Below, piece after piece: positions 2,001 to 33,622 of a DNA stretch of 38,587 nt. Position 1 is the first letter of the stretch. Each line of letters starts with the position of its first letter. The stretch is taken from the IMG/VR virus record IMGVR_UViG_3300029650_000167, one strand, 5' to 3'. A program made the position numbers and the translations under genes. This DNA is from a virus. Lineage: Duplodnaviria > Heunggongvirae > Uroviricota > Caudoviricetes. The notes under the pieces were generated by a model, which saw only the letters and a program-made list of their open reading frames with translations, was not told where the DNA came from and ran no database searches.

Positions 2001-2297
2001 TCAAATAGAGAAATAAACACAAAAACAAAAAACAACAGGAACAGCAAAATCCAACAGACTTCCCACATCCCACACGCGTGGATCAAAACCTCCCCACCAC
2101 GGCATGTTGATACGTTTCCCTTTCCCAAACTTTTCTATCCAGCGATATTCTGCCTGGGTGTGTTCACGCGCAATGAAGAACGTACAACCGGCTATCGCAC
2201 CGTAAGCCCAGTTTCCGGTAAAAATACCAACCAGTACCTGAGCCACAAAAGCGCAAAGCGAGTGAAGAAATGGAGTGACATCAATGCTCTTAATCAT
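2001..2297 (-). CDS. small membrane protein, translationally coupled to tailspike
   Basis: 98 aa hydrophobic protein; start ATG overlaps tailspike stop (ATGA); AT-rich; function not recognised. Confidence 0.4.
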   Translation of the reverse strand: MIKSIDVTPFLHSLCAFVAQVLVGIFTGNWAYGAIAGCTFFIAREHTQAEYRWIEKFGKGKRINMPWWGGFDPRVWDVGSLLDFAVPVVFCFCVYFSI

Positions 2298-4483
2298 GAA
2301 ACTTCCCCATTGGTTGAAAATATGGCTCCTCCAACGCCAAGTGTATTTCGTGTTGTGCTCAACCTCAGAGGGCTGGAGTCAGAATTAGAATATCCTGTAG
2401 CAGAAATAAAAGATCCTCCACTAATAGTCAACTGCGGAACATCGGCTATATCTGAATAAGTTCTGTCAGCAACAGTATTATTTATAGCCACATATGATCC
2501 AAAAAAACTTCTTATTGTTTGGTTTTTAACTTTACTTCCTTCAATGGTTATCCTACTACCACAGTCGGCAATAAATCCTGAATCTGCATCCAGCGTTGCA
2601 TTCATAAAAGAAGCTTCAGATCTCTCTACATCAATCCATCTAATATCTTTTGTGGGATTTGCACCAAATACATGACAAATATTAGAGTTAAACCTTACAC
2701 CATCTTGGAGGTGCATTAATTTTTTTATATCTGTACCCCATAGCCTTGGAAAATTAACAGATGCTCCTGCATGGCAATCAAATCCCAGCTCAGCCCCTGA
2801 GATATCTACAGCCTTTCCTGAAATAACAGCACCAGTGTCTGCATTAACGGCTGTTCCACAATTGCGCATATCATTACCAGCAACATCAACGCAACCCGCA
2901 CCATCAATACGCACACCAAGTGCACATCCATAAAAACCTTTTTCAATATTTGGTTCAAGGACTTTACCACTTGTTTCTGCATCACTTTCTTCAACGTCAT
3001 GTCGTCTTGCATCAACATATGCTGTATGAATGCAGGTTAATCCACGATATGAGCAATGTATAGTTTTATGGTCGCGTATATTAACATTTGAACCATCTCT
3101 TACATTCCATCCTATATAACAATAGCTTGCACTTGACCCCTGAAAATCTGCTTTAACATTATAAATACAATTAACTGACGCAACCGTACTCTCTGTGCAC
3201 CGTTCAAACTTGCTTACAGGCATTGATGCCTTGACATTATTTACCAGTTGCAGGGAAGAGTATCTGCTATAAGAAAAATCACATACGTAATACCCTTCTG
3301 GCATATATGCAGCAACACTTTCCTCATCAGGAGCACATCCGGTATGATATGCACTAATTTTTGCACCAAAACTACCATGAATTCCAACGTAGAACTTTCG
3401 AGCACCTGAATACGGATAGAAATTAAGTTCAGCTTTTTGAGTTACAATAAATGCACAAACATCGCTATCATCTCTATTTTCTTCGATCTGAATAGCAAAT
3501 ACAGGACTTTTTGCTGCATCGCAAATGTAAAATAAATACTTGTATTCGTAATACGTTCTAACGATTTTAGTAAACAAACGAGTGTCAGAGAAAACCACTG
3601 AGTCTTCTGATGTTATTTTAATCCAAGACAAATCAACACCTGAACTGAATTCAATTTGATAGTTGATAATATGCCCGGTCTTAATTCTTATTTCGCAGAA
3701 AGCATTACCACCATCCCACATAGGTCTCATTGACTGGGCTGCAATGATTGCATCTTTGAGTGTAGGGTAATCACCCCATTCGCCAACAGTAATAACAAAA
3801 GTATAATATGAGTTAAAAACAGCGGCATTTTTGCCTTTGGATATCAACTCCTTAATCATAAAAATATTATCTTCGTAATCACAAGGAGAAATTATATCCC
3901 TCATTTTGCTTTGAAATGTTCGTTGTCTTGCCCCGCTTCCTGACGGTATAAACCAACCAAAACCACCAACAACCCCGGCGATTGCAGCATCGACATAATT
4001 ACGCATTGAGCGATTATTTACAGCGTCCTGCTCAAATGATGGATCTGCAAGGTTAGAAATTTTGTTTTGCTTTGCATCGTAATATTTTGCAAGCAAAGAT
4101 GGTTTCATCAATGCACGTCTGAACCACCCAAAACATCGCTGGATCAGCATCGTCAGGTAGTCAAATGCATCTTCATGAACTTCGGGGAAAAATTTTCCCT
4201 GATTGCGAAGATCAGTCTCCTGCACCACATCAAGCACACGCTCTATCGTAATTCGCCAGCCAGCAGCAAGCGGCGACGGGAGAACCACAGAACCGCCACT
4301 ATAAGTGCCCGCCCCAGTTACCGTATAACCGGTATCCAGAACCAATTCTGTTACGTTCCCGTTCAGGTCAGACACCTGAACAACCAGGTCTGATTTTTTG
4401 AAAATACGGAAGGTATACGGAAACGATGTCGTAACGCCGTTACCGGTGTATTCGTTGTGGTCAACTTCGGTTGAGACCGTCAT
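2294..4483 (-). CDS. tailspike / receptor-binding protein with beta-helix-like C-terminal region
   Basis: 729 aa; SD GGAG 8 nt before ATG; N-terminal about 110 aa in typical GC composition, remainder AT-rich with Gly/Asn/Ser/Thr-rich repeats suggesting a beta-helix depolymerase-type domain. Confidence 0.7.
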   Translation of the reverse strand: MTVSTEVDHNEYTGNGVTTSFPYTFRIFKKSDLVVQVSDLNGNVTELVLDTGYTVTGAGTYSGGSVVLPSPLAAGWRITIERVLDVVQETDLRNQGKFFPEVHEDAFDYLTMLIQRCFGWFRRALMKPSLLAKYYDAKQNKISNLADPSFEQDAVNNRSMRNYVDAAIAGVVGGFGWFIPSGSGARQRTFQSKMRDIISPCDYEDNIFMIKELISKGKNAAVFNSYYTFVITVGEWGDYPTLKDAIIAAQSMRPMWDGGNAFCEIRIKTGHIINYQIEFSSGVDLSWIKITSEDSVVFSDTRLFTKIVRTYYEYKYLFYICDAAKSPVFAIQIEENRDDSDVCAFIVTQKAELNFYPYSGARKFYVGIHGSFGAKISAYHTGCAPDEESVAAYMPEGYYVCDFSYSRYSSLQLVNNVKASMPVSKFERCTESTVASVNCIYNVKADFQGSSASYCYIGWNVRDGSNVNIRDHKTIHCSYRGLTCIHTAYVDARRHDVEESDAETSGKVLEPNIEKGFYGCALGVRIDGAGCVDVAGNDMRNCGTAVNADTGAVISGKAVDISGAELGFDCHAGASVNFPRLWGTDIKKLMHLQDGVRFNSNICHVFGANPTKDIRWIDVERSEASFMNATLDADSGFIADCGSRITIEGSKVKNQTIRSFFGSYVAINNTVADRTYSDIADVPQLTISGGSFISATGYSNSDSSPLRLSTTRNTLGVGGAIFSTNGEVS

Positions 4484-4587
4484 GTTAAATCTCCAGATAG
4501 TCGCAGCACCCGTTGCGCCGCATATCTGGTTATTCTATTACCTGAAAAACCACATATGGATAGAAAGACTGTGAATACGAATAGATA

Positions 4588-4602
4588 TTACCTTTCAGGT
4601 AA
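4588..4602. promoter_or_regulatory. operator-like palindrome TTACC-TTTCA-GGTAA
   Basis: Perfect 15-bp inverted repeat in the divergent region between tailspike and the LexA-box gene; on minus strand flanked by TTGCAA and TATCTA at -35/-10 spacing. Confidence 0.6.
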
Positions 4603-4641
4603 TTTGCAAAACGTGCTGGATAGCAAACAAATTATTTGCTA

Positions 4642-4657
4642 CTGTATAAATATACAG
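4642..4657 (+). promoter_or_regulatory. LexA box (SOS box) CTGT-N8-ACAG
   Basis: TACTGTATAAATATACAGTT at 4640-4659 matches the enterobacterial LexA consensus TACTGTATATATATACAGTA at 18 of 20 positions; overlaps an extended -10-like TGtATAAAT; 22 nt upstream of SD GGAG. Confidence 0.75.
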
Positions 4658-4678
4658 TTATTGCATGGAGAAGATAAG

Positions 4679-4936
4679 ATGCAGCAGTATCACTATCCAC
4701 TGGAAGACGGATTTACCGAAAGGATTCACACGCCGGGAGGCGTCAGGTCACTGGTGGAGGGATCGCATTTGATGAAATTACTCCGGGATCTCGATAAGGA
4801 TGGATTTAATGTCGATGGCCCACTTGCCGAACTGACTGCACTGATTAACTACGTCACCAGCTCACAGATGTCTATGCAGGATCTGCAAACACATCTCGAC
4901 TATTGTGCCGAACAATTACGAAAGCAAACCAGATAA
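4679..4936 (+). CDS. small LexA-controlled protein, antirepressor-like domain (paralog of Bro-N protein C-terminus)
   Basis: 85 aa; SD GGAG 8 nt upstream; residues HTPGGVRSLVEGSHLMKLL...DGFNVDGPLAELT...QTH align with the C-terminus of ORF 5252-5962. Confidence 0.5.
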   Translation: MQQYHYPLEDGFTERIHTPGGVRSLVEGSHLMKLLRDLDKDGFNVDGPLAELTALINYVTSSQMSMQDLQTHLDYCAEQLRKQTR

Positions 4937-4967
4937 GGTTTGCAATTACCAAGTGGAGTGCTTATAT

Positions 4968-4982
4968 TTACCTTTGCGGTAA
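4968..4982. promoter_or_regulatory. operator-like palindrome TTACC-TTTGC-GGTAA
   Basis: Perfect match to the dispersed 15-bp motif, between the small LexA-box gene and the Bro-N gene. Confidence 0.5.
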
Positions 4983-5062
4983 ATTTACATCGCACTCCTC
5001 TTGTGCCATAGTAATCAGGCACTGGCAAAATCCAGTGCCGGGATTGGCGTCCCGAGTTACTA

Positions 5063-5085
5063 AGTGGCGCATACCACGCCAGACG
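5063..5085 (+). terminator. rho-independent terminator-like hairpin
   Basis: Stem ACCACG/CGTGGT with 5-nt loop followed by seven T. Confidence 0.45.
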
Positions 5086-5251
5086 TGGTTTTTTTATGCG
5101 TTAAGCACAGCTATATCCGAATTATGGTGGGCTGGGCAGGGGTCCGAAAGGACGCCGGTACCACTTAGGCCGGTACGCCAACCTTGTCCAGTTCACCACC
5201 AGTAATTGGCGTTGCGGTGGTGATTAAAATCACTAAGTGGAGATAACCACC

Positions 5252-5962
5252 ATGGCTAATGCTCAAACTGCCATCTTCAAATTTGAATCTGTTAACCCTA
5301 TCCGTTCCATCATTATCGATGGCCAACCATGGTTTGTAGCCCAAGACGTTTGTAGTGCGCTGCGCATCCAAAACGTCACCCAAGCACTTGAAAAACTGGA
5401 TGATGATGAAAGGTCTATGTTCAACATAGGGCATGAACATCGTGCAATTTTTGACAGCCGAGTAAAAGAGATCAACATCATCTCCGAGTCAGGCCTCTAC
5501 ACACTGATCCTCCGCTGCCGCGACGCAGTGACACCAGGCACTATCCCCTACCGCTTTCGTAAATGGGTTACAGGTGAGGTTCTTCCTCAGATCCGCCGCA
5601 CCGGAAGTTACATTAAAAACTCGCTCCCGCAGGAAGAACGCATAAAGATGGTTGCCGACCAGGTAGCCAACGCCACGGCGTCAGCAGTAATGCAGGCGAT
5701 GAAGATAGAGAACAAAACCTACAGTGCCCCACTGAAGCCCGGCTACCGTAGCCTGATTCATTCGCCGTCTGGTGTTCTCGGCCTGACGGAGAACTCACTG
5801 CTGATGAATCTGCTGAACCAGTTACAGGAAGACGGGCACGACGTATCGGGCGCGGCGGCGGAGCTGACCACCATGTTCTGCTACATCGTCGGTGTGAGCA
5901 AATGCCTGCGTGATATCCAGACCCACGCGGAGTACATCAACGACAAGGCTGGGTTCTTCTGA
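5252..5962 (+). CDS. Bro-N domain protein, putative antirepressor
   Basis: 236 aa from ATG 5252 (SD GGAG 9 nt upstream; track shows GTG at 5237); N-terminal FKFE...IDGQPWFVAQDVCSAL...ESGLYTLILRC resembles Bro-N/KilA-N; C-terminal about 70 aa paralogous to ORF 4679-4936. Confidence 0.6.
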   Translation: MANAQTAIFKFESVNPIRSIIIDGQPWFVAQDVCSALRIQNVTQALEKLDDDERSMFNIGHEHRAIFDSRVKEINIISESGLYTLILRCRDAVTPGTIPYRFRKWVTGEVLPQIRRTGSYIKNSLPQEERIKMVADQVANATASAVMQAMKIENKTYSAPLKPGYRSLIHSPSGVLGLTENSLLMNLLNQLQEDGHDVSGAAAELTTMFCYIVGVSKCLRDIQTHAEYINDKAGFF

Positions 5963-5999
5963 CGGGCGGCGGCACAGGGATGTGCCTTTAAAATAATCA

Positions 6000-6029
6000 T
6001 TGGCGATGTGATGTAGATTCGCGTAATAT
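6000..6029 (+). promoter_or_regulatory. sigma70-like promoter (TTGGCG - 18 bp - TAATAT)
   Basis: -35 and -10 hexamers at canonical spacing immediately followed by the operator palindrome at 6029. Confidence 0.4.
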
Positions 6030-6043
6030 TACCTTAAAGGTAA
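6029..6043. promoter_or_regulatory. operator-like palindrome TTACC-TTAAA-GGTAA
   Basis: Perfect motif directly after the -10 and directly before SD AGGAGG of ORF 6056. Confidence 0.55.
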
Positions 6044-6055
6044 AGGAGGCGCGAT

Positions 6056-6223
6056 ATGACAGCGTTGAAAAATCGTACTCAGCACAATGAACAAGCCAAG
6101 CAATGCTGGGATGTCATTGGAAAAGTTATGCTTGGCCGCGCAAGCAAAGAGCGCGACAAGGATATGGTTTACCAGACAGGAACATCTTTCAGCGACTTCA
6201 AGGCGGCATTTCGCTCCAAATAG
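6056..6223 (+). CDS. small hypothetical protein (55 aa)
   Basis: Strong SD AGGAGG 6 nt before ATG; below the ORF-track size cutoff; basic, no TM segment. Confidence 0.4.
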   Translation: MTALKNRTQHNEQAKQCWDVIGKVMLGRASKERDKDMVYQTGTSFSDFKAAFRSK

Positions 6224-6243
6224 AAGCACATCAGGAGTTTTCC

Positions 6244-6684
6244 TTGAAGTTTAACATTAGAATATCTAATAGTTTTCTACATGGGGAAAGCAACACCCCT
6301 TTCGCTGTAGACGGACCTTTCCTTACTGATGATGAAATAAAAATCATACAAAGTTTTTTAGAGGATGTTGCCAATGGAAGGGCGCTTGTTGGAAAAAACA
6401 AGCCCTCATGGGTTGATGATAACCATGATAAAATTCCCGGCTCAGACAATTATGAGCAAGAGAATTATTGGCATTATCATTGTGGGCCAACATGGTATCC
6501 AAACACATTTAAGAATTATACCATTAACTTAAATTTCAACCCTAGCGGAAGGCATTCTAATGAATGCATTCATTATGCAAAAAATGATAATGAAATTGTC
6601 ATTGTTGGATTTTCAAGAGAACACATACCTTTCCTTTCATCAGATGGAAACAACAATCCGCTTTTTAATGATGAAGAAGAATAG
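6244..6684 (+). CDS. hypothetical protein, AT-rich moron (start uncertain, possibly TTG)
   Basis: Open frame from 6103 to 6684; no internal ATG after the upstream small ORF ends, TTG at 6244 is preceded by GGAG; about 33 percent GC versus about 52 percent for the phage; followed by a strong terminator. Confidence 0.4.
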   Translation: MKFNIRISNSFLHGESNTPFAVDGPFLTDDEIKIIQSFLEDVANGRALVGKNKPSWVDDNHDKIPGSDNYEQENYWHYHCGPTWYPNTFKNYTINLNFNPSGRHSNECIHYAKNDNEIVIVGFSREHIPFLSSDGNNNPLFNDEEE

Positions 6685-6704
6685 CCCGCGCTGCGGGCTT
6701 TTTT
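6683..6704 (+). terminator. rho-independent terminator
   Basis: AGCCCGC-GCT-GCGGGCT hairpin followed by TTTTTT. Confidence 0.7.
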
Positions 6705-6776
6705 GTGGACGAAACAAAAGTCAGTGCTACACTCATTGACGCCACATTGAGGTGGCTTATAGATGGAAATTTCACA

Positions 6777-6938
6777 ATGAAAAAAGCATTTGCTGCACTG
6801 TTCGTTTTGTTGTCTCTGGTAGCTTCAACTCAGGCCTTTGCCGGTCGTTGTCAGCACGACAGCGACACTGCCGCTGACGGCTCCCGCTGCGGTGGGCGTT
6901 CTGCGGATTCCCGCCCGGGCGGCGGTGGCATTCGTTAA
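6777..6938 (+). CDS. small secreted peptide (signal peptide plus about 31-aa Gly/Arg/Asp-rich mature region with two Cys)
   Basis: MKKAFAALFVLLSLVASTQAFA looks like a Sec signal peptide ending at an AxA site; internal ATG of the track ORF 6705-6938. Confidence 0.4.
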   Translation: MKKAFAALFVLLSLVASTQAFAGRCQHDSDTAADGSRCGGRSADSRPGGGGIR

Positions 6939-6961: not shown

Positions 6962-6973
6962 GTGACATGTCAC
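6962..6973. other. perfect 12-bp palindrome GTGACATGTCAC (copy 1 of 3)
   Basis: Identical 12-mer also at 24567 and 26832; overlaps the TGA stop of the minus-strand ORF 6970-7266. Confidence 0.5.
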
Positions 6974-7266
6974 GTCCCTTTTCTGAATGATAGCCATTCG
7001 AAAAATGATGACATTCCACCGCAGACAATAGCAAAGATGATCCCACCAAAGAAGAGAAGGCCAGCCTGCCACCACTCCCACCGCCATACATCCACAGCGC
7101 CAACCATACCAACAATCGCTCCAACAAATGGAATATAGCTCACGATGAAAGCAATGGGGGCTGCAATTATCCAGTGCAATCCCCACCATGATTCAAGCCC
7201 AGCCATAATTGCTGCCAACTGAAAAAGACCAACGACGATATAAACAATGAATCCTATAGCTTGCAT
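6970..7266 (-). CDS. small integral membrane protein
   Basis: 98 aa with three hydrophobic segments and several Trp; function unknown. Confidence 0.45.
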   Translation of the reverse strand: MQAIGFIVYIVVGLFQLAAIMAGLESWWGLHWIIAAPIAFIVSYIPFVGAIVGMVGAVDVWRWEWWQAGLLFFGGIIFAIVCGGMSSFFEWLSFRKGT

Positions 7267-7461: not shown

Positions 7462-9936
7462 TTATTGCGGAGTGACATCCTGAGGTCGCCACCAGTATGT
7501 CTGGTTAAACTCTTTCTTCGAACGTTGCTCCATTTTACGCAAATAGCCTGGTGAAAAATACTCCTGCATCTGATTAAAGATCATGTGATCGAGAGCCGCC
7601 TTCAAGTACCAGAGATTCGCACCTGGCATCAAACCTTTCCCCAGCTTCACCAGATCACCACCAGTCTGCTCACTCTTCCCTTCCACAGCATTTAGCGGTA
7701 TGCCCTGAGCTATCTTCACTACGTCATCAACCAGACCAGCTACCGGGCCAAGCATCGACGCCAGCGCGCCGCTCCCGTACCTAGTGTGATCTGACAATAA
7801 AAAGTCACCGTAAAGGCCAAGACCACCACCTTTCAGTAGAGCACCAAGCCAAAATTTAGCAGCATCTTCTCCTGTCATCTCTCGAGGATTACGACCAGAC
7901 GCAAGGTCGTTAAGTTGTTGCGACAAAGCGCCAAGAATGGTCGTACTGGCAATAAACGTCGCAATATATGCCGCACGCCCACCAGCAGACGGCATACCCA
8001 TAGCGCGTGACCAGTGACGCATAACAACCGAGATAGGGAACGATTTAAACAGGAAAACACTTCTCGTTAATTCACCTTTCCATGTTCCACGCTGAATACC
8101 AGAACCGGTTATCAGTTGCTCACGTGCTCCCGGTGTAATAACAGCCATATCAACTTCTTCAGTTACGGCACCGAGCAGTTTACGCATTGCCTCAAATTTC
8201 ACGCGTTCAGGCTCACCAAGATGTTTAACTGCTGAATCAGGGATACGCATAATGCTTTCCGGTGTCAGCATCGTATTATTACCGTTCCCCCAGTCCTCCT
8301 GTTGCGCCAACTTCCATACGCTCCAGTCTGTGTCAGTAATCCCTTTGCTTTTCAGGATACGAAAATCAGAGTCATCGAGGCGACGAAGGTCTGGTGTCCG
8401 TGACACTACTTCTCCCAGGCTTCCCATCATGGTTACGCCATAGGCGCGCTTGTGCGCATCTGACCATGCTGTAAGCCCACTGGCACGCATTACCGCCGTT
8501 GCAGCCCAACGAGACACAGACGGCCCCATATTATCCATCGCCCAGCGGTTAACGCTGCCAAGTAGAGATTCCATCGCCAGACCAGCGCGGCGCGCCCGCG
8601 CAAGTTCTGTACGGTTCGTTGGGTCCATAGCTTCAAGCTGGTTGCGGAATAACTGGTTCATTGGAAGGTTGGTAACCTTCGCAGACAGATACATGGTTCC
8701 AAGATCAGAGAACGATGACAGCAACGCGGATCCGAGTCTGCTGGCAACCAGCCAGTTGCGGATATTGTCAGACCATCGCGCGATGTGCGGATTCGCTACA
8801 GGCTGTGTCTTTCCGGAAATAAAGTTGTACAGATTCTCTGTGTTGTTCGCCAGCCGCTCGACTTTACCGGTTTTACTCGGGTTAGCTGTTGCCGTTTCTG
8901 CCTTCACCTGATCAAGAAGAGAGCGGAAAACATGATCGGGGTTTGGACCATATGTTTCCACCAGTGCAATATCTTTACTGATACCTTCCAGGTGACCGAC
9001 CATGATTTCCCATAGAGAGCGATCGCCATAAAGTTGCTGATATTGCAGATAGGAATCTGCATCTTTGAAATGTATCTGTCGTGATGCATTACCACGGTTA
9101 GCACGTGCGCCGGAAATTCGCATTCCGGTATCAGTAAGCTTATTCAGCCCACCAGTAGCGATCGTGTTATAAGCCTCTCCAAGAAATGCAGACAACTCGG
9201 CATCGTTCATCAGTTGTCCATCGGCTCGGGTATAATATTTGCGATCCAGCTTACCTATAACATCGCTAACCCATTTATCTTTTGATACCGCCCCAACCTT
9301 TTCCATAGAATGATGTTGAGGGATCCCCCAGTTTTCGAGATAGCCAATGTCCCCACCAGCATCATTAAACCGGCGGCGCAGTAGCTCTGTCACTTCTCTC
9401 CACGCCTTAGCACCTTTTCTTGCTTTAGCATTGCCAGTATTTTGCCCCCGCATTTCATATACCAGGTCACGTACGCCAGCTTCATCTTCAAACAGACCAA
9501 AAAAGCGAGGATCAACTGCTTCGAATGCCTCCTGCAATTGACTCAATGCATAATCACGGGTGGCTTTTGTTCTGGATTCAACAGAGAGGAAATTCGATTT
9601 ACCGTCTGCATTAAAAGCAATAGTACGGTTAAGAGCGCCAAGTTTCCCATCAGCCCCTTGATAGCTATTGATAAATTTATCCAATCTCTGACGTGCGGCT
9701 ATAGTGAGGGCCACACGACGTTTCTTTAATGCCGCTTCTCGCTGTAATTCTTCAGATGCCAATTGTGCTGCACGATACAGCCGCTCTGATTCGGAAAGTT
9801 GTCGCCACGACATCGGGTCATCACGAGCAATGGAGCGCATATTTCGATAAATGCGGTCTTCAATGTTCTGTATTTCTCGCGCCGTTAACGTGCGCTGCGC
9901 CGCCTGCTGGACCGCTTGTATACATTCCTGTCTCAT
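7462..9936 (-). CDS. internal virion / ejection protein (large)
   Basis: 824 aa, last large gene of the core series before the moron island; assignment by size and synteny with T7 gp16-like proteins, no motif recognised. Confidence 0.5.
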   Translation of the reverse strand: MRQECIQAVQQAAQRTLTAREIQNIEDRIYRNMRSIARDDPMSWRQLSESERLYRAAQLASEELQREAALKKRRVALTIAARQRLDKFINSYQGADGKLGALNRTIAFNADGKSNFLSVESRTKATRDYALSQLQEAFEAVDPRFFGLFEDEAGVRDLVYEMRGQNTGNAKARKGAKAWREVTELLRRRFNDAGGDIGYLENWGIPQHHSMEKVGAVSKDKWVSDVIGKLDRKYYTRADGQLMNDAELSAFLGEAYNTIATGGLNKLTDTGMRISGARANRGNASRQIHFKDADSYLQYQQLYGDRSLWEIMVGHLEGISKDIALVETYGPNPDHVFRSLLDQVKAETATANPSKTGKVERLANNTENLYNFISGKTQPVANPHIARWSDNIRNWLVASRLGSALLSSFSDLGTMYLSAKVTNLPMNQLFRNQLEAMDPTNRTELARARRAGLAMESLLGSVNRWAMDNMGPSVSRWAATAVMRASGLTAWSDAHKRAYGVTMMGSLGEVVSRTPDLRRLDDSDFRILKSKGITDTDWSVWKLAQQEDWGNGNNTMLTPESIMRIPDSAVKHLGEPERVKFEAMRKLLGAVTEEVDMAVITPGAREQLITGSGIQRGTWKGELTRSVFLFKSFPISVVMRHWSRAMGMPSAGGRAAYIATFIASTTILGALSQQLNDLASGRNPREMTGEDAAKFWLGALLKGGGLGLYGDFLLSDHTRYGSGALASMLGPVAGLVDDVVKIAQGIPLNAVEGKSEQTGGDLVKLGKGLMPGANLWYLKAALDHMIFNQMQEYFSPGYLRKMEQRSKKEFNQTYWWRPQDVTPQ

Positions 9937-19547: not shown

Positions 19548-20540
19548 TTACACCACGCGGGCTTCTGTTTCCAGAAGCGCATCAGTTTCACGGATTGGTA
19601 CACCACGGAATGACGTCCACCACTCGCCTTCAGTCTCTTTTACGCTAATCGCCAGAGATGTTTTCTCCAGAGACTGCAAATCAAGAGCCTGGCCTACAGT
19701 GCGGTTCATGTAGAACACCGGGCGACCCATGCCACGGTTTGGAATGCGATGCAGTGCTTTAACCATCAACTTCGCAATATTTGCGGCAGAGGAAGGTTCT
19801 GAAAGATTGCTGACATCGATGTTTGCAATGCGAACAACATAACGCCAGTCACGCAGAGCAAGTCCGTTGTCCCATTTGTAATGGGTACGGTAGCCTTCGT
19901 ACTTGCCGCCATTAGCATCTTCCAGTGTCACCTGGCCTTTATCTTCCATCTGAATGCCAGCCTTCTGCCCTTTCGGGAAGATGCCATGCACGGTGTTTTC
20001 GCCCCACACCACTAACCAGATTGAGGTGTTATCTGTACCCGTGCCACCAGCATCAATGATGTTCTGAGCATTACCTGCAGACAGGCTGGAATAGCGGGAG
20101 GACAGTCCCATAAACTGCTGAGGGTTAACGCTGGAATCACCATAAAACAGCGTCTGCGCCATCTGCTGATTCATCGCTTCAATAAATGCGCGGTCTTCAG
20201 ACAGGCGGAATTCGGCGGTATTGCCGTTCAGATCAGCCAGTGACTTATCGACTTCAGCATAGGTTTCCAGCATGCCAACGGAATCGGTTACCTGCACTGT
20301 GGTTGATTTGCTTGGCTGTACGCCATAGTTCAGCAAACGCCAGGTAGCTGAAGGTAAACCAGAACGAATGGTGGTTCGGTGTCCGGTAGGAAGGTTCCCT
20401 TCGACAAAAGGCATATCCTGAAGGATCGGGTTAGTTTGACCGAGAAGCTCGATAATCTTATCGACTTTCCCGTTTGGATCGACGCGCTTACCCCAGTCAG
20501 CCAGCGTTAGCGCAGTTAAGCCTTTAACAGCCATTGTCAT
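19548..20540 (-). CDS. major capsid protein
   Basis: 330 aa, directly after the scaffold gene and before decoration-like genes; size and position typical of a podovirus major capsid protein. Confidence 0.7.
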   Translation of the reverse strand: MTMAVKGLTALTLADWGKRVDPNGKVDKIIELLGQTNPILQDMPFVEGNLPTGHRTTIRSGLPSATWRLLNYGVQPSKSTTVQVTDSVGMLETYAEVDKSLADLNGNTAEFRLSEDRAFIEAMNQQMAQTLFYGDSSVNPQQFMGLSSRYSSLSAGNAQNIIDAGGTGTDNTSIWLVVWGENTVHGIFPKGQKAGIQMEDKGQVTLEDANGGKYEGYRTHYKWDNGLALRDWRYVVRIANIDVSNLSEPSSAANIAKLMVKALHRIPNRGMGRPVFYMNRTVGQALDLQSLEKTSLAISVKETEGEWWTSFRGVPIRETDALLETEARVV

Positions 20541-23508: not shown

Positions 23509-23545
23509 TTGACATTTAACGCGCGAATTATTACCTTTCAGGTAA
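23509..23545 (+). promoter_or_regulatory. promoter (-35 TTGACA) with overlapping operator palindrome TTACC-TTTCA-GGTAA
   Basis: Consensus TTGACA at 23509-23514, 16 bp later the perfect operator motif (23531-23545) occupies the -10/+1 region; points toward the tRNA. Confidence 0.5.
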
Positions 23546-23867: not shown

Positions 23868-23944
23868 GTGGCATTAGCTCAGTTGGACAGAGCAACCGCC
23901 TTCTAAGCGGTTGGTCGCAGGTTCGAATCCTGCATGCCACGCCA
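23868..23944 (+). tRNA. tRNA-Arg (anticodon UCU, reads AGA)
   Basis: Hand-folded cloverleaf: acceptor GTGGCAT/ATGCCAC, D-arm GCTC/GAGC, anticodon stem ACCGC/GCGGT with loop CTTCTAA, T-arm GCAGG-TTCGAAT-CCTGC, discriminator G and encoded CCA. Confidence 0.85.
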
Positions 23945-30458: not shown

Positions 30459-30473
30459 TTACCTCTGAGGTAA
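30459..30473. promoter_or_regulatory. operator-like palindrome TTACC-TCTGA-GGTAA
   Basis: Perfect motif overlapping the 5' UTR and SD of gene 30111-30455. Confidence 0.5.
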
Positions 30474-30520
30474 TTAAAAACCACATAAGACACGAAATCA
30501 ATAGATTTTAGAATATTTTA

Positions 30521-30535
30521 TTACCTAACAGGTAA
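30521..30535. promoter_or_regulatory. operator-like palindrome TTACC-TAACA-GGTAA inside a promoter spacer
   Basis: On the minus strand TCGACA - operator - TAAAAT, so the palindrome fills the 16-bp spacer between -35 and -10. Confidence 0.6.
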
Positions 30536-32785: not shown

Positions 32786-32800
32786 TCACCTATAAGGTAA
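32786..32800. promoter_or_regulatory. operator OR-like site A (TCACC-TATAA-GGTAA)
   Basis: 9 of 10 match; in the divergent cro/repressor region, inside the spacer of a minus-strand TTGATT...GAATAT promoter. Confidence 0.5.
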
Positions 32801-32816
32801 CAAAAATCAAGGATAG

Positions 32817-32831
32817 TTACCCACGAGGTGC
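32817..32831. promoter_or_regulatory. operator OR-like site B (TTACC-CACGA-GGTGC, weak)
   Basis: 8 of 10 match, 17 bp from site A and abutting site C. Confidence 0.3.
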
Positions 32832-32833
32832 AT

Positions 32834-32848
32834 TTACCTGTTGGGTAA
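32834..32848. promoter_or_regulatory. operator OR-like site C (TTACC-TGTTG-GGTAA)
   Basis: Perfect motif about 55 bp upstream of the repressor start. Confidence 0.55.
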
Positions 32849-32903: not shown

Positions 32904-33488
32904 ATGAAAAGTATCCAGGACGTCCGCAGGCAAAATCTCAACGACTTGATCGACCGTGAATTCAATGGTGTTCAGACGCGGATGGCTGAAAAACTTGGAA
33001 CTCAGGCAAATCTGGTAAACCGCTGGGCTCTTGGCAAGAAGGTTATCGGCGACCAGGTTGCACGAAAAATTGAAGCTGCCGCCAATAAACCCCGTAACTG
33101 GCTTGATATCGATCGCTCGCTTTCTCAGGAAGGTTTTCAGCCTGTCGGCCCAAGCGACATTGGCCAGCTGGCGGCTCACAACCTGGAACGCTGGATGAGC
33201 GAAAGCCGCGACCTTTCAACACAGGGAAAACTTCACCGCGCATCCGGCGTAGCCCAGGTGACAATCAGCCGCCTGTTAAACAATGAGGTCAGCGTTTCCA
33301 TTTCCACCCTGGAGAATGTTGCATCCGCATTCGGGCGTCACGGCTATGAATTACTGATTCACCCGCACGACCCTGCGACCATCAACTATGATCGCTCGCG
33401 CTACGCATTGTTACCCGAAACCGAGAAAGCAAAGATCGAAAGTTACATTGAATTTGTCATCAACCAGAACGAAAAAAACAAACAATAA
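32904..33488 (+). CDS. prophage repressor with tandem XRE-type HTH domains, no peptidase domain
   Basis: 194 aa; two HTH-like segments (TRMAEKLGTQANLVNRWALGKK and ASGVAQVTISRLLNNEVSVSISTLENVA); no Ser/Lys S24 autocleavage motif; divergent from cro-like gene. Confidence 0.7.
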   Translation: MKSIQDVRRQNLNDLIDREFNGVQTRMAEKLGTQANLVNRWALGKKVIGDQVARKIEAAANKPRNWLDIDRSLSQEGFQPVGPSDIGQLAAHNLERWMSESRDLSTQGKLHRASGVAQVTISRLLNNEVSVSISTLENVASAFGRHGYELLIHPHDPATINYDRSRYALLPETEKAKIESYIEFVINQNEKNKQ

Positions 33489-33545: not shown

Positions 33546-33560
33546 TTACCTAACAGGTAA
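33546..33560. promoter_or_regulatory. operator OL-like site (TTACC-TAACA-GGTAA)
   Basis: Perfect motif 20 bp upstream of a TTGACA -35 hexamer. Confidence 0.55.
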
Positions 33561-33579
33561 TTTTTTTAACTCATATCTA

Positions 33580-33607
33580 TTGACATCAAACCATATACGC
33601 ATAATTA
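33580..33607 (+). promoter_or_regulatory. PL-like promoter (TTGACA - 16 bp - TAATTA)
   Basis: Consensus -35 and AT-rich -10 at canonical spacing, immediately followed by an operator palindrome. Confidence 0.5.
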
Positions 33608-33622
33608 TTACCTCAACGGTAA
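33608..33622. promoter_or_regulatory. operator OL-like site (TTACC-TCAAC-GGTAA)
   Basis: Perfect motif at the predicted transcription start of the plus-strand early operon. Confidence 0.55.

Follow-up and report, generated by a model that had tools for sequence, protein, structure and literature searches.

We analysed a 38,587-nucleotide (nt) stretch of tailed-phage DNA (IMG/VR record IMGVR_UViG_3300029650_000167; hereafter the window, with positions counted from its first letter on the strand given), in which a LexA (SOS) box precedes a small antirepressor gene, ant, and a gene for a Bro-N fusion protein follows it. The anatomy of this locus makes it quite probable that two tiers of antirepression converge on one repressor, Rep: a LexA/Ant/Rep switch of the type known from phage SPC32H, and a second antirepressor, the Bro-N fusion, gated by a C4-type antisense RNA. 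The first tier is known from SPC32H and is carried over by orthology, and of the second we describe the anatomy and infer the function. Judged by its sequence, the window is a phiV10/epsilon15-like (Uetakevirus) Escherichia coli prophage with the lysis-lysogeny switch of SPC32H. Over positions 4400-6250 its identity is 99.2% with Escherichia phage HEMP4 and 92-95% with phiV10, phiv142-3, ZX5 and TL-2011b. The ant/Bro-N locus is flanked by the tailspike gene (2294-4483, minus strand) and by the gene of a large ejection or structural protein (7462-9936, minus strand); the SPC32H ant locus has the same position between tailspike and ejection-protein genes, which we count in favor of the proposed switch. 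Of 5426 complete E. coli genomes, 533 have a match to ant with the leader region behind it, and in these the gene carries the annotation hypothetical.

LexA box, small antirepressor and repressor

The LexA box TACTGTATAAATATACAGTT (4640-4659) has two mismatches to the consensus TACTGTATATATATACAGTA and is the sole match with three or fewer mismatches in the 38.6 kb of the window; 100 dinucleotide-preserving shuffles contained no LexA-consensus match. The agreement at 18 of 20 positions, claimed in an original prediction made from the letters alone, is therefore confirmed by position, mismatch count and shuffle test, whereas the 22 nt that it gave between box and open reading frame (ORF) measure 19 nt from the end of the box to the ant ATG. 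The shorter motif CTGT-N8-ACAG occurs three times in the window, and the other two sites (19518 and 24060) are not LexA boxes, having G+C-rich spacers and more than three mismatches to the 20-mer. A LexA box stands at the same position ahead of ant in eight phages of E. coli, Salmonella and Enterobacter, with invariant CTGT and ACAG arms and a variable center; the relatives compared with the window were phiV10, phiv142-3, TL-2011b, EC.W1-9, Tyrion, SPNIS2 and SPC32H. In SPC32H the sequence ahead of ant is TACTGTATGTTTATACAGTG. Across the 601 nt compared, SPC32H and its variant SPC32N differ at two positions, one of which changes a LexA box arm from ACAG to AAAG. The abstract of Kim and Ryu 2013 reportedly describes a mutation that makes Ant constitutive, and the SPC32N change in the arm fits such a mutation. 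The other difference, C to T at position 20147, affects codon 5 of the tailspike gene and no regulatory element.

A putative ant promoter (4617-4650, plus strand) can be read from the sequence in two ways, both of which place the -10 element within the LexA box. Candidate A combines TGGATA (4617-4622), a 17-nt spacer and TACTGT (4640-4645); candidate B combines TAGCAA (4621-4626), an 18-nt spacer and TATAAA (4645-4650). The sequence GCTGGATAG and its distance to the LexA box are conserved in the relatives. The predicted overlap of the box with a -10-like element stands insofar as TATAAA lies inside the box, although a generic promoter scan called no promoter for ant.

The ant gene itself (4679-4936, plus strand) encodes 85 amino acids (aa) and has a ribosome-binding GGAG (4667-4670) 8 nt ahead of its ATG. 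Its product matches the PDB chain 5D50_E, 'Anti-repressor protein', over residues 2-84 (phmmer, E 4.1e-47) and the family phrog_450, and we call it an antirepressor because it is 88% identical (BLASTP) to the crystallized SPC32H Ant of that entry; by close homology the 85-aa ORF is an antirepressor of the SPC32H Ant family. No match was found in Pfam, NCBIfam or PADLOC, and neither a DinI/Tum-type domain nor any other significant Pfam match was present. PHROG and structure-database searches with Ant returned no match to GfoA or GftA, the sequences of which were not themselves compared. The correct family is that of SPC32H Ant and Rep, and the Tum and Gifsy antirepressors, to which the gene had originally been likened, are functional analogues only. 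A longer, 126-aa ORF that begins at ATG 4556 is not the gene: it spans the promoter and the LexA box, and the crystallized protein has 86 aa. Mis-annotation of ant is frequent, as seen here at 4556-4936 and in relatives (L007 2781-3041; L002 3206-3499). Many database entries have a 126/127-aa ORF with a start ahead of the LexA box, and a single cluster of them has 833 members; the ant of Tyrion, intact at 86 aa, is entered with 54 aa, and in SPNIS2 an ORF on the opposite strand is annotated in place of ant.

The presumed target of both antirepressors is the product of rep (32904-33488, plus strand), a 194-aa protein that matches 5D50_A, 'Repressor', over its full length (E 4e-42). Pfam places an HTH_3 domain at residues 106-147 and a weak N-terminal helix-turn-helix-like match at 21-61, and finds no Peptidase_S24 domain. 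The earlier description of a repressor with two helix-turn-helix domains and no autocleavage domain is upheld by these matches, and homology identifies the protein as a non-cleavable SPC32H-type Rep. Rep is 42% identical to that of SPC32H. Within the phiV10-like group it hardly varies: it is 98.5-100% identical in all listed E. coli members, 100% identical in those compared for C4 below, and the same in the window, phiV10, phiv142-3 and EC.W1-9. The ORF of the cro-like gene, which is divergent from rep, had no Pfam, NCBIfam or PADLOC match.

According to one paper (PMC9638917), Rep binds DNA as a tetramer, and Ant, itself tetrameric, breaks this up by binding two dimers of Rep. Another paper describes LexA self-cleavage followed by antirepressor synthesis in several Salmonella prophages, with reference to Kim and Ryu 2013 (PMC7380047). 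The LexA-antirepressor mechanism is already established for the SPC32H orthologue, and the core of what was first noticed at this locus is known. The proposed SOS induction through a LexA-controlled antirepressor is supported for the window by the orthology of Ant and Rep to SPC32H and by the conserved LexA box.

Leader promoters, IsrK-like and C4 RNAs and the Bro-N fusion

Two promoters lie between ant and the Bro-N gene, both found by the promoter scan. Leader promoter P1, TTGCAA-17-TATATT (4940-4968, plus strand), starts 3 nt past the ant stop codon, and its -35 and -10 elements are kept in seven phages despite differing spacer and upstream DNA. Leader promoter P2, TTTACA-17-(TG)cCATAGT (4984-5012, plus strand), was scored with its TG and is nearly invariant in the seven phages; transcription is predicted to start near 5019, where the Rfam isrK match begins. 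Between them stands the palindrome TTACCTTTGCGGTAA (4968-4982), which abuts the -10 element and start site of P1 as well as the -35 element of P2, and which in the seven phages has invariant arms and five free central nucleotides. A 12-nt inverted repeat, CAAGTGGAGTGC (4950-4961) and GCACTCCTCTTG (4992-5003), brackets the P1 -10 element, the palindrome and the P2 -35 element, and its hairpin is possible only in transcripts that read through from ant.

This palindrome is one of ten exact TTACC-N5-GGTAA sites in the window (4588, 4968, 6029, 23531, 26739, 30459, 30521, 32834, 33546 and 33608), against 0.01 expected; two further sites (32449 and 32786) carry one mismatch. Apart from the leader site at 4968, sites lie ahead of ant (4588), ahead of a 55-aa ORF (6029) and ahead of the tRNA region (23531). 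Two sites 62 bp apart surround a sigma-70-like early promoter with TTGACA (33546-33622), a mirror-image 62-bp pair (30459/30521) stands at the other early promoter (30459-30535), and a further pair occupies the interval from rep to the divergent cro-like gene (32786-32848; 32834 exact, 32786 with one mismatch). At six promoters the palindrome abuts the -10 element. SPC32H carries TTACC-N5-GGTAA at equivalent places, with one pair 62 bp apart and one site between rep and cro among them. Given that the Rep tetramer binds palindromic sites (PMC9638917), these palindromes are best read as dispersed Rep operators, possibly shared with the cro-like protein. If so, leader promoter P1 would be repressed by Rep, as the immI promoter of phage P1 is by C1, and P2, with its -35 element abutting the palindrome, may stay active and supply the IsrK-like and C4 RNAs in a lysogen.

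The copy ahead of ant, TTACCTTTCAGGTAA (4588-4602), a putative Rep operator as well, lies some 57-62 nt before the ant start site, in the interval from which ant and the tailspike gene diverge, and is conserved at this position in all eight relatives, SPC32H included. The region upstream of the tailspike gene (4484-4600, minus strand) resembles the leftward early promoter region, with which it has ATGTGGTTTTT and ATCTATT motifs in common; it contains the palindrome and a half-site, ATTACCTGAAA, at 4537-4547, and lacks good sigma-70 hexamers. The palindrome at 4588 may act on the transcription unit of tailspike and lysis genes instead of, or besides, ant.

An Rfam scan of 4400-6800 revealed two structured RNAs in the spacer between ant and the Bro-N gene, a module that the original reading of the locus did not include. 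The IsrK-like RNA (5019-5095, plus strand; RF01394, 67.2 bits against a gathering threshold of 50) consists of two hairpins and an intrinsic terminator, and is followed by a C4-type antisense RNA (5120-5203, plus strand; RF01695, 66.0 bits against 45); both also pass in gathering mode. A c4-a1b1 match (RF03163, 5006-5058), in a stretch also covered by isrK, falls just below its threshold (42.8 against 46.7 bits). The C4 loop b', CCACTTAG (5161-5168), is complementary to CTAAGTGG, which occurs as b1 (5060-5067), ahead of the intrinsic terminator placed at 5073-5096 by a terminator scan, and again as b2 (5233-5240). The single-stranded a' segment ACGCCAA (5175-5181) is complementary to TTGGCGT at a1 (5044-5050) and a2 (5206-5212). 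The C4 targets a2 and b2 (both plus strand) thus stand in front of the Bro-N gene, and b2 overlaps its Shine-Dalgarno sequence GGAG (5239-5242), the ATG being at 5252; every b2 among the loci compared overlaps a Shine-Dalgarno sequence. No small upstream ORF of the icd or orf45 kind lies between 5203 and 5252. In E. coli strain 315 a 168-aa ORF precedes the antirepressor gene with an 8-nt overlap.

The two RNAs are found in six relatives with the gene (phiV10, phiv142-3, TL-2011b, EC.W1-9, Tyrion and a Klebsiella phage) and are unannotated in every record examined; Rfam found neither in SPC32H. Across 12 loci, b', b1 and b2 change together and fall into five classes (CTAAGTGG, CTAAAAGG, CTACA(A/G)AGG, CTAAACGG and CTAGTAGG), and a', a1 and a2 change together in two (TTGGCGT and TTGGTCT). 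Duplexes of cognate loops and targets range from -8.6 to -14.4 kcal/mol in energy, those of non-matching ones from -3.6 to -9.2 kcal/mol. For the window, the cognate a2 and b2 duplexes reach -12.6 and -10.3 kcal/mol, compared with -3.8 to -8.5 kcal/mol for b-class non-matching C4s on b2 and -4.5 kcal/mol for the other a class on a2. The C4 consensus fold has 22 pairs, with compensatory changes in the closing stem, and the leader (5019-5260) folds with z = -4.9. Taken together, this is strong comparative evidence that C4 antisense pairing is functional. The window, phiV10, phiv142-3 and EC.W1-9 have an identical Rep yet four different a/b combinations. A third b-like copy, ACCAAGTGGAG (4947-4957), is not a C4 target, being unchanged in phiV10, the C4 loop of which differs; it pairs instead with 4992-5003. 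The C4 module occurs also in decayed or mosaic prophages: E. coli BCE049 (L014 967-2267) has the C4 leader beside a pair of truncated antirepressor pseudogenes and the gene of an endosialidase tailspike. The literature searched on phiV10 contained no description of a C4 module in Uetakeviruses.

The gene behind C4 (5252-5962, plus strand) encodes a 236-aa fusion protein that matches Pfam PF02498, 5D50_E and PHROG anti-repressor families. Its Bro-N domain (PF02498) covers aa 17-112 (nt 5300-5587; 71.5 bits against a gathering threshold of 25.6) and is the only Pfam match at E <=0.1, with no ANT/KilAC domain (PF03374). The C-terminal domain (aa 155-231, nt 5714-5944) is Ant-like and matches 5D50_E with E 1.2e-13. 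A pairwise check bore out the claim that the 85-aa protein aligns with this C-terminus: BLASTP pairs residues 2-75 of Ant with 155-228 of the fusion without gaps (31/74 identities, 42%; E 9e-16). The fusion was originally taken for a second carrier of the domain under a different promoter, and it does have the same domain and a promoter of its own; what that description lacks is that the gene is also behind a C4 module.

Two clades of paralogues, one of small Ant and one of the Bro-N C-terminus, show 37-42% identity to each other and have in common the core Y..P...IH.P.G..L..S..M.LL...DG..V.G..AE...Y......TH. On the constant C-terminal domain the N-terminus is swapped, being Bro-N in the window, AntA (PF08346) in phiv142-3 and ORF6N in E. 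coli strain 315, and all three kinds of fusion stand behind C4. Homologue searches with the C-terminal (Bro-C) domain gave fragments and stand-alone forms for the most part rather than full-length fusions, and the fusion partners were taken from phage and genome records. Stand-alone 95-aa forms of the Bro-C type exist (P0123, P0131 and P0135), one of them named anti-repressor by its source. Phage records with the Ant domain number 34 and those with Rep 37; the two sets are nearly the same and consist entirely of enterobacterial epsilon15-like phages. A profile search of 1.84 billion representatives gave 129 matches at E <=0.001, many of them to the Bro-N or linker part only.

Proposed switch and alternative readings

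In the proposed switch, LexA bound to the box that overlaps the ant -10 element would silence ant. DNA damage would lead to cleavage of LexA and synthesis of the 85-aa Ant, which would bind the C-terminal domain of Rep, a non-cleavable tetramer, and remove Rep from its operators, turning the lytic genes on. C4 from read-through transcripts would pair with a2 and b2 and block translation of the Bro-N fusion, and a1 and b1 in the IsrK-like RNA would serve as decoy targets for C4. The fusion would act as a second antirepressor of the same Rep. In a lysogen it would be silenced twice, at leader promoter P1 by the palindrome-binding repressor, probably Rep, and at the ribosome-binding site by C4. 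It would be released once Rep has been inactivated, leading to commitment, and also on infection of a cell with a non-matching resident C4, leading to anti-immunity as in phage P1 against P7. We infer that the fusion is an antirepressor of Rep for anti-immunity and commitment; the anti-immunity role is argued from the identical Rep combined with four different a/b combinations, as in P1 and P7.

From the ant stop codon (4936) onward, the terminator scan found none before that of isrK (5073-5096). Transcripts of ant derepressed from LexA would hence carry a1 and b1 as a 3' extension and may reach C4 and the Bro-N gene. In Gifsy-1, the short IsrK activates anrP translation in trans (PMC4825925). 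SOS induction could in this way also relieve C4 repression in the window phage.

Several observations weigh against the two-tier switch. Binding by LexA, Rep and the antirepressors is deduced from homology, and AlphaFold2 gave a model of the Bro-N protein (26-row alignment; mean predicted local distance difference test score, pLDDT, 49; predicted template-modeling score, pTM, 0.30) that was too poor and was not used. With only 37-42% identity to Ant, the Bro-N C-terminal domain could have kept oligomerization without Rep binding. TTACC-N5-GGTAA is a candidate operator of Rep, and the cro-like protein or another factor could bind it. Gifsy-1 lysogens express IsrK and the C4-like STnc1160 (PMC7067206), and for this reason repression of the leader by Rep can be only partial, for instance of P1 but not of P2. 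The phiV10 Bro-N gene is broken inside the Ant-like domain and annotated as ORFs of 194 and 29 aa (L001 3840-4519), the missing stretch reading in another frame, and phiV10 is probably without a working second antirepressor. The module is also absent from SPC32H and some E. coli relatives, and, together with the broken phiV10 copy, this marks the second tier as dispensable.

Among the alternatives, one concerns the palindrome, which may not be a Rep operator but bind a cro-like protein or host factor, or be a promoter element, leaving the Bro-N gene under C4 only and independent of Rep. The equivalent Gifsy-1 promoter is active in lysogens (PMC7067206). We nevertheless regard this as unlikely, given the sites in the rep/cro spacer and the 62-bp pairs around both early promoters, likewise in SPC32H, and given that the palindrome abuts the -10 element at six promoters and fits a Rep tetramer on palindromic sites (PMC9638917).

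Another alternative accepts the operators and questions the role of the shared domain, which the Bro-N protein may have kept for oligomerization. The fusion would then form mixed tetramers with Ant and damp, tether or localize it instead of acting as an independent antirepressor. Ant does act as a tetramer (PMC9638917), the conserved core of the paralogues could equally be an oligomer interface, and the genes are adjacent and perhaps co-transcribed, with no terminator from the ant stop codon to 5073. The stand-alone 95-aa forms, one of them named anti-repressor, suggest that the domain is functional alone, and diversification of C4 classes on an identical Rep is expected of an immunity-breaking product and not of Ant tuning, which makes mixed tetramers quite improbable as the explanation. 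The Bro-N fusion might also hit repressors of other resident prophages, in a kind of inter-prophage cross-talk, or have another role (host take-over, DNA binding through Bro-N), and not act on its own Rep. Trans-acting antirepressors that hit non-cognate repressors are documented, and FsoA, which is under its own prophage repressor, has no apparent role in the induction of that phage (PMC3121763); that Ant is 88% identical to its SPC32H counterpart and Rep only 42% hints at a broad specificity. Nearly exclusive occurrence of the Ant domain in phages that encode this Rep type, and a family as small as 129 matches in 1.84 billion, argue instead for a dedicated partner, and we hold cross-talk or such another role to be very improbable.

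Beyond the two-tier switch, a wider reading is conceivable, which we hold only tentatively and think somewhat doubtful: immunity groups among phiV10-like phages would be set by RNA-RNA pairing and not by repressor-operator specificity, C4 would gate an antirepressor with an interchangeable N-terminus on a constant Ant-type domain for binding Rep, and the SOS-induced ant transcript would titrate C4 and so free the second antirepressor in a feed-forward commitment step. If the second tier is confirmed, the locus would offer a tractable system for studying escape from the immunity of related prophages and the roles of Bro-N, AntA and ORF6N in antirepressors. With about 1 in 10 complete E. coli genomes matching ant and its leader, the practical value lies mostly in annotation, and recognition of the locus predicts prophages that are SOS-inducible through LexA without repressor cleavage.

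Neighboring genes and known systems

Downstream of the Bro-N gene, at 6000-6684, a promoter (TTGGCG-18-TAATAT) overlapped by the palindrome at 6029-6043 is followed by ORFs of 55 aa (6056-6223) and 145 aa (6247-6684). Neither ORF had a Pfam, NCBIfam or PADLOC match, and PHROG returned families of unknown function only. In TL-2011b and some E. coli prophages a YafO-type toxin-antitoxin pair occupies this position, which looks like a variable cargo slot. The Rfam scan also gave a Trp_leader match (6600-6706; E 0.28, 21.5 bits against 41), which we discard as noise over a terminator. Further on, a 53-aa ORF (6777-6938) with a signal-peptide-like N-terminus matches phrog_14503 (membrane-associated, moron), and a 98-aa hydrophobic ORF (6970-7266, minus) lies on the opposite strand; both follow the antirepressor region, precede the ejection-protein gene and probably represent lysogenic-conversion or membrane cargo. 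A tRNA-Arg gene (anticodon TCT, 23868-23944) has a TTGACA promoter with a palindrome (23531-23545) about 320 nt upstream; SPC32H, too, has a tRNA-Arg.

The closest known system is the Ant/Rep switch of the Salmonella Uetakevirus SPC32H, reportedly worked out by Kim and Ryu in 2013 and Kim et al. in 2016, with structures under PDB 5D50 and 5D4Z. Its ant (19676-19936) occupies the same locus beside the tailspike gene. The two Ant proteins are 88% identical and have 85 and 86 aa, the LexA box is in the same place and overlaps the promoter, Rep is a full-length homologue without a cleavage domain, and TTACC-N5-GGTAA stands upstream of ant. SPC32H differs from the window in having neither a Bro-N gene nor an isrK/C4 RNA, and in a Rep that is only 42% identical.

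For the second tier the parallel is the immI operon of phages P1 and P7 (c4, icd, ant1/2), said to have been analysed by Citron and Schuster in 1990. RNase P processing of the leader transcript yields the C4 of phage P1. In phage P1, C1 represses the c4-icd-ant operon, and the antisense RNA C4 is also needed to keep ant silent (PMC8198154). As in immI, the window has a C4 RNA with a1/b1 upstream and a2/b2 downstream, b2 over a ribosome-binding site, and then an antirepressor gene; the promoter overlaps a site that recurs at the other early promoters of the phage, and specificity classes differ among phages with a common primary repressor. The scattered palindromes of the window likewise resemble the C1 operators dispersed over phage P1. 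Unlike P1 and P7, the window has no icd-like ORF, and b2 lies directly on the antirepressor's own Shine-Dalgarno sequence. The C-terminus of its antirepressor is of the SPC32H Ant type and not KilAC/ANT, an IsrK-type terminator separates a1/b1 from C4, and the phage is an integrated podovirus, whereas P1 is a plasmid myovirus.

The immI region of P22 is also a second immunity region that encodes an antirepressor beside the tailspike gene of a temperate podovirus and involves an antisense RNA. There, control is by Mnt, Arc and the cis-antisense sar RNA and not by LexA and C4; the P22 Ant is an AntA and KilAC protein, and the C2 repressor is cleavable. Mnt is documented as controlling the P22 ant gene (PMC7380047). 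LexA-controlled antirepressors that inactivate a non-cleavable repressor are known as Tum of phage 186 and AntC of N15, Tum being a 146-aa protein with a Tum-like N-terminal and a DinI-like C-terminal half (PMC3121763). No sequence relation to either was detected, and Pfam found no DinI-like domain in the window Ant. The window proteins resemble Tum and AntC in the control of the gene and in the kind of repressor presumably inactivated.

The isrK-orf45-anrP locus of Gifsy-1, for which the studies named are reportedly those of Hershko-Shalev 2016 and Lemire 2011, has an isrK-matching leader, too, and a terminator read-through transcript that carries an antirepressor-like gene, and the same prophage has a separate small antirepressor under LexA control (GfoA). 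Unlike there, the antirepressors of the window are adjacent paralogues with one common domain, and orf45 is missing. The published model for Gifsy-1 puts the weight on activation by the short IsrK in trans, and in it the downstream RNA STnc1160 is not framed as a C4 repressor. We know of no relation to AntQ. Gifsy-1, with its LexA-controlled GfoA and IsrK-controlled AnrP, is a precedent for dual control. Against this background, the window would represent a P1-style antisense-RNA immunity grafted on the SPC32H Rep/Ant switch, with diversified RNA specificities and swapped N-terminal modules. What the locus adds to these systems is a paralogous antirepressor, apparently gated by C4/IsrK, with RNA specificities that have diversified among phages of identical Rep; it is made wholly of known kinds.

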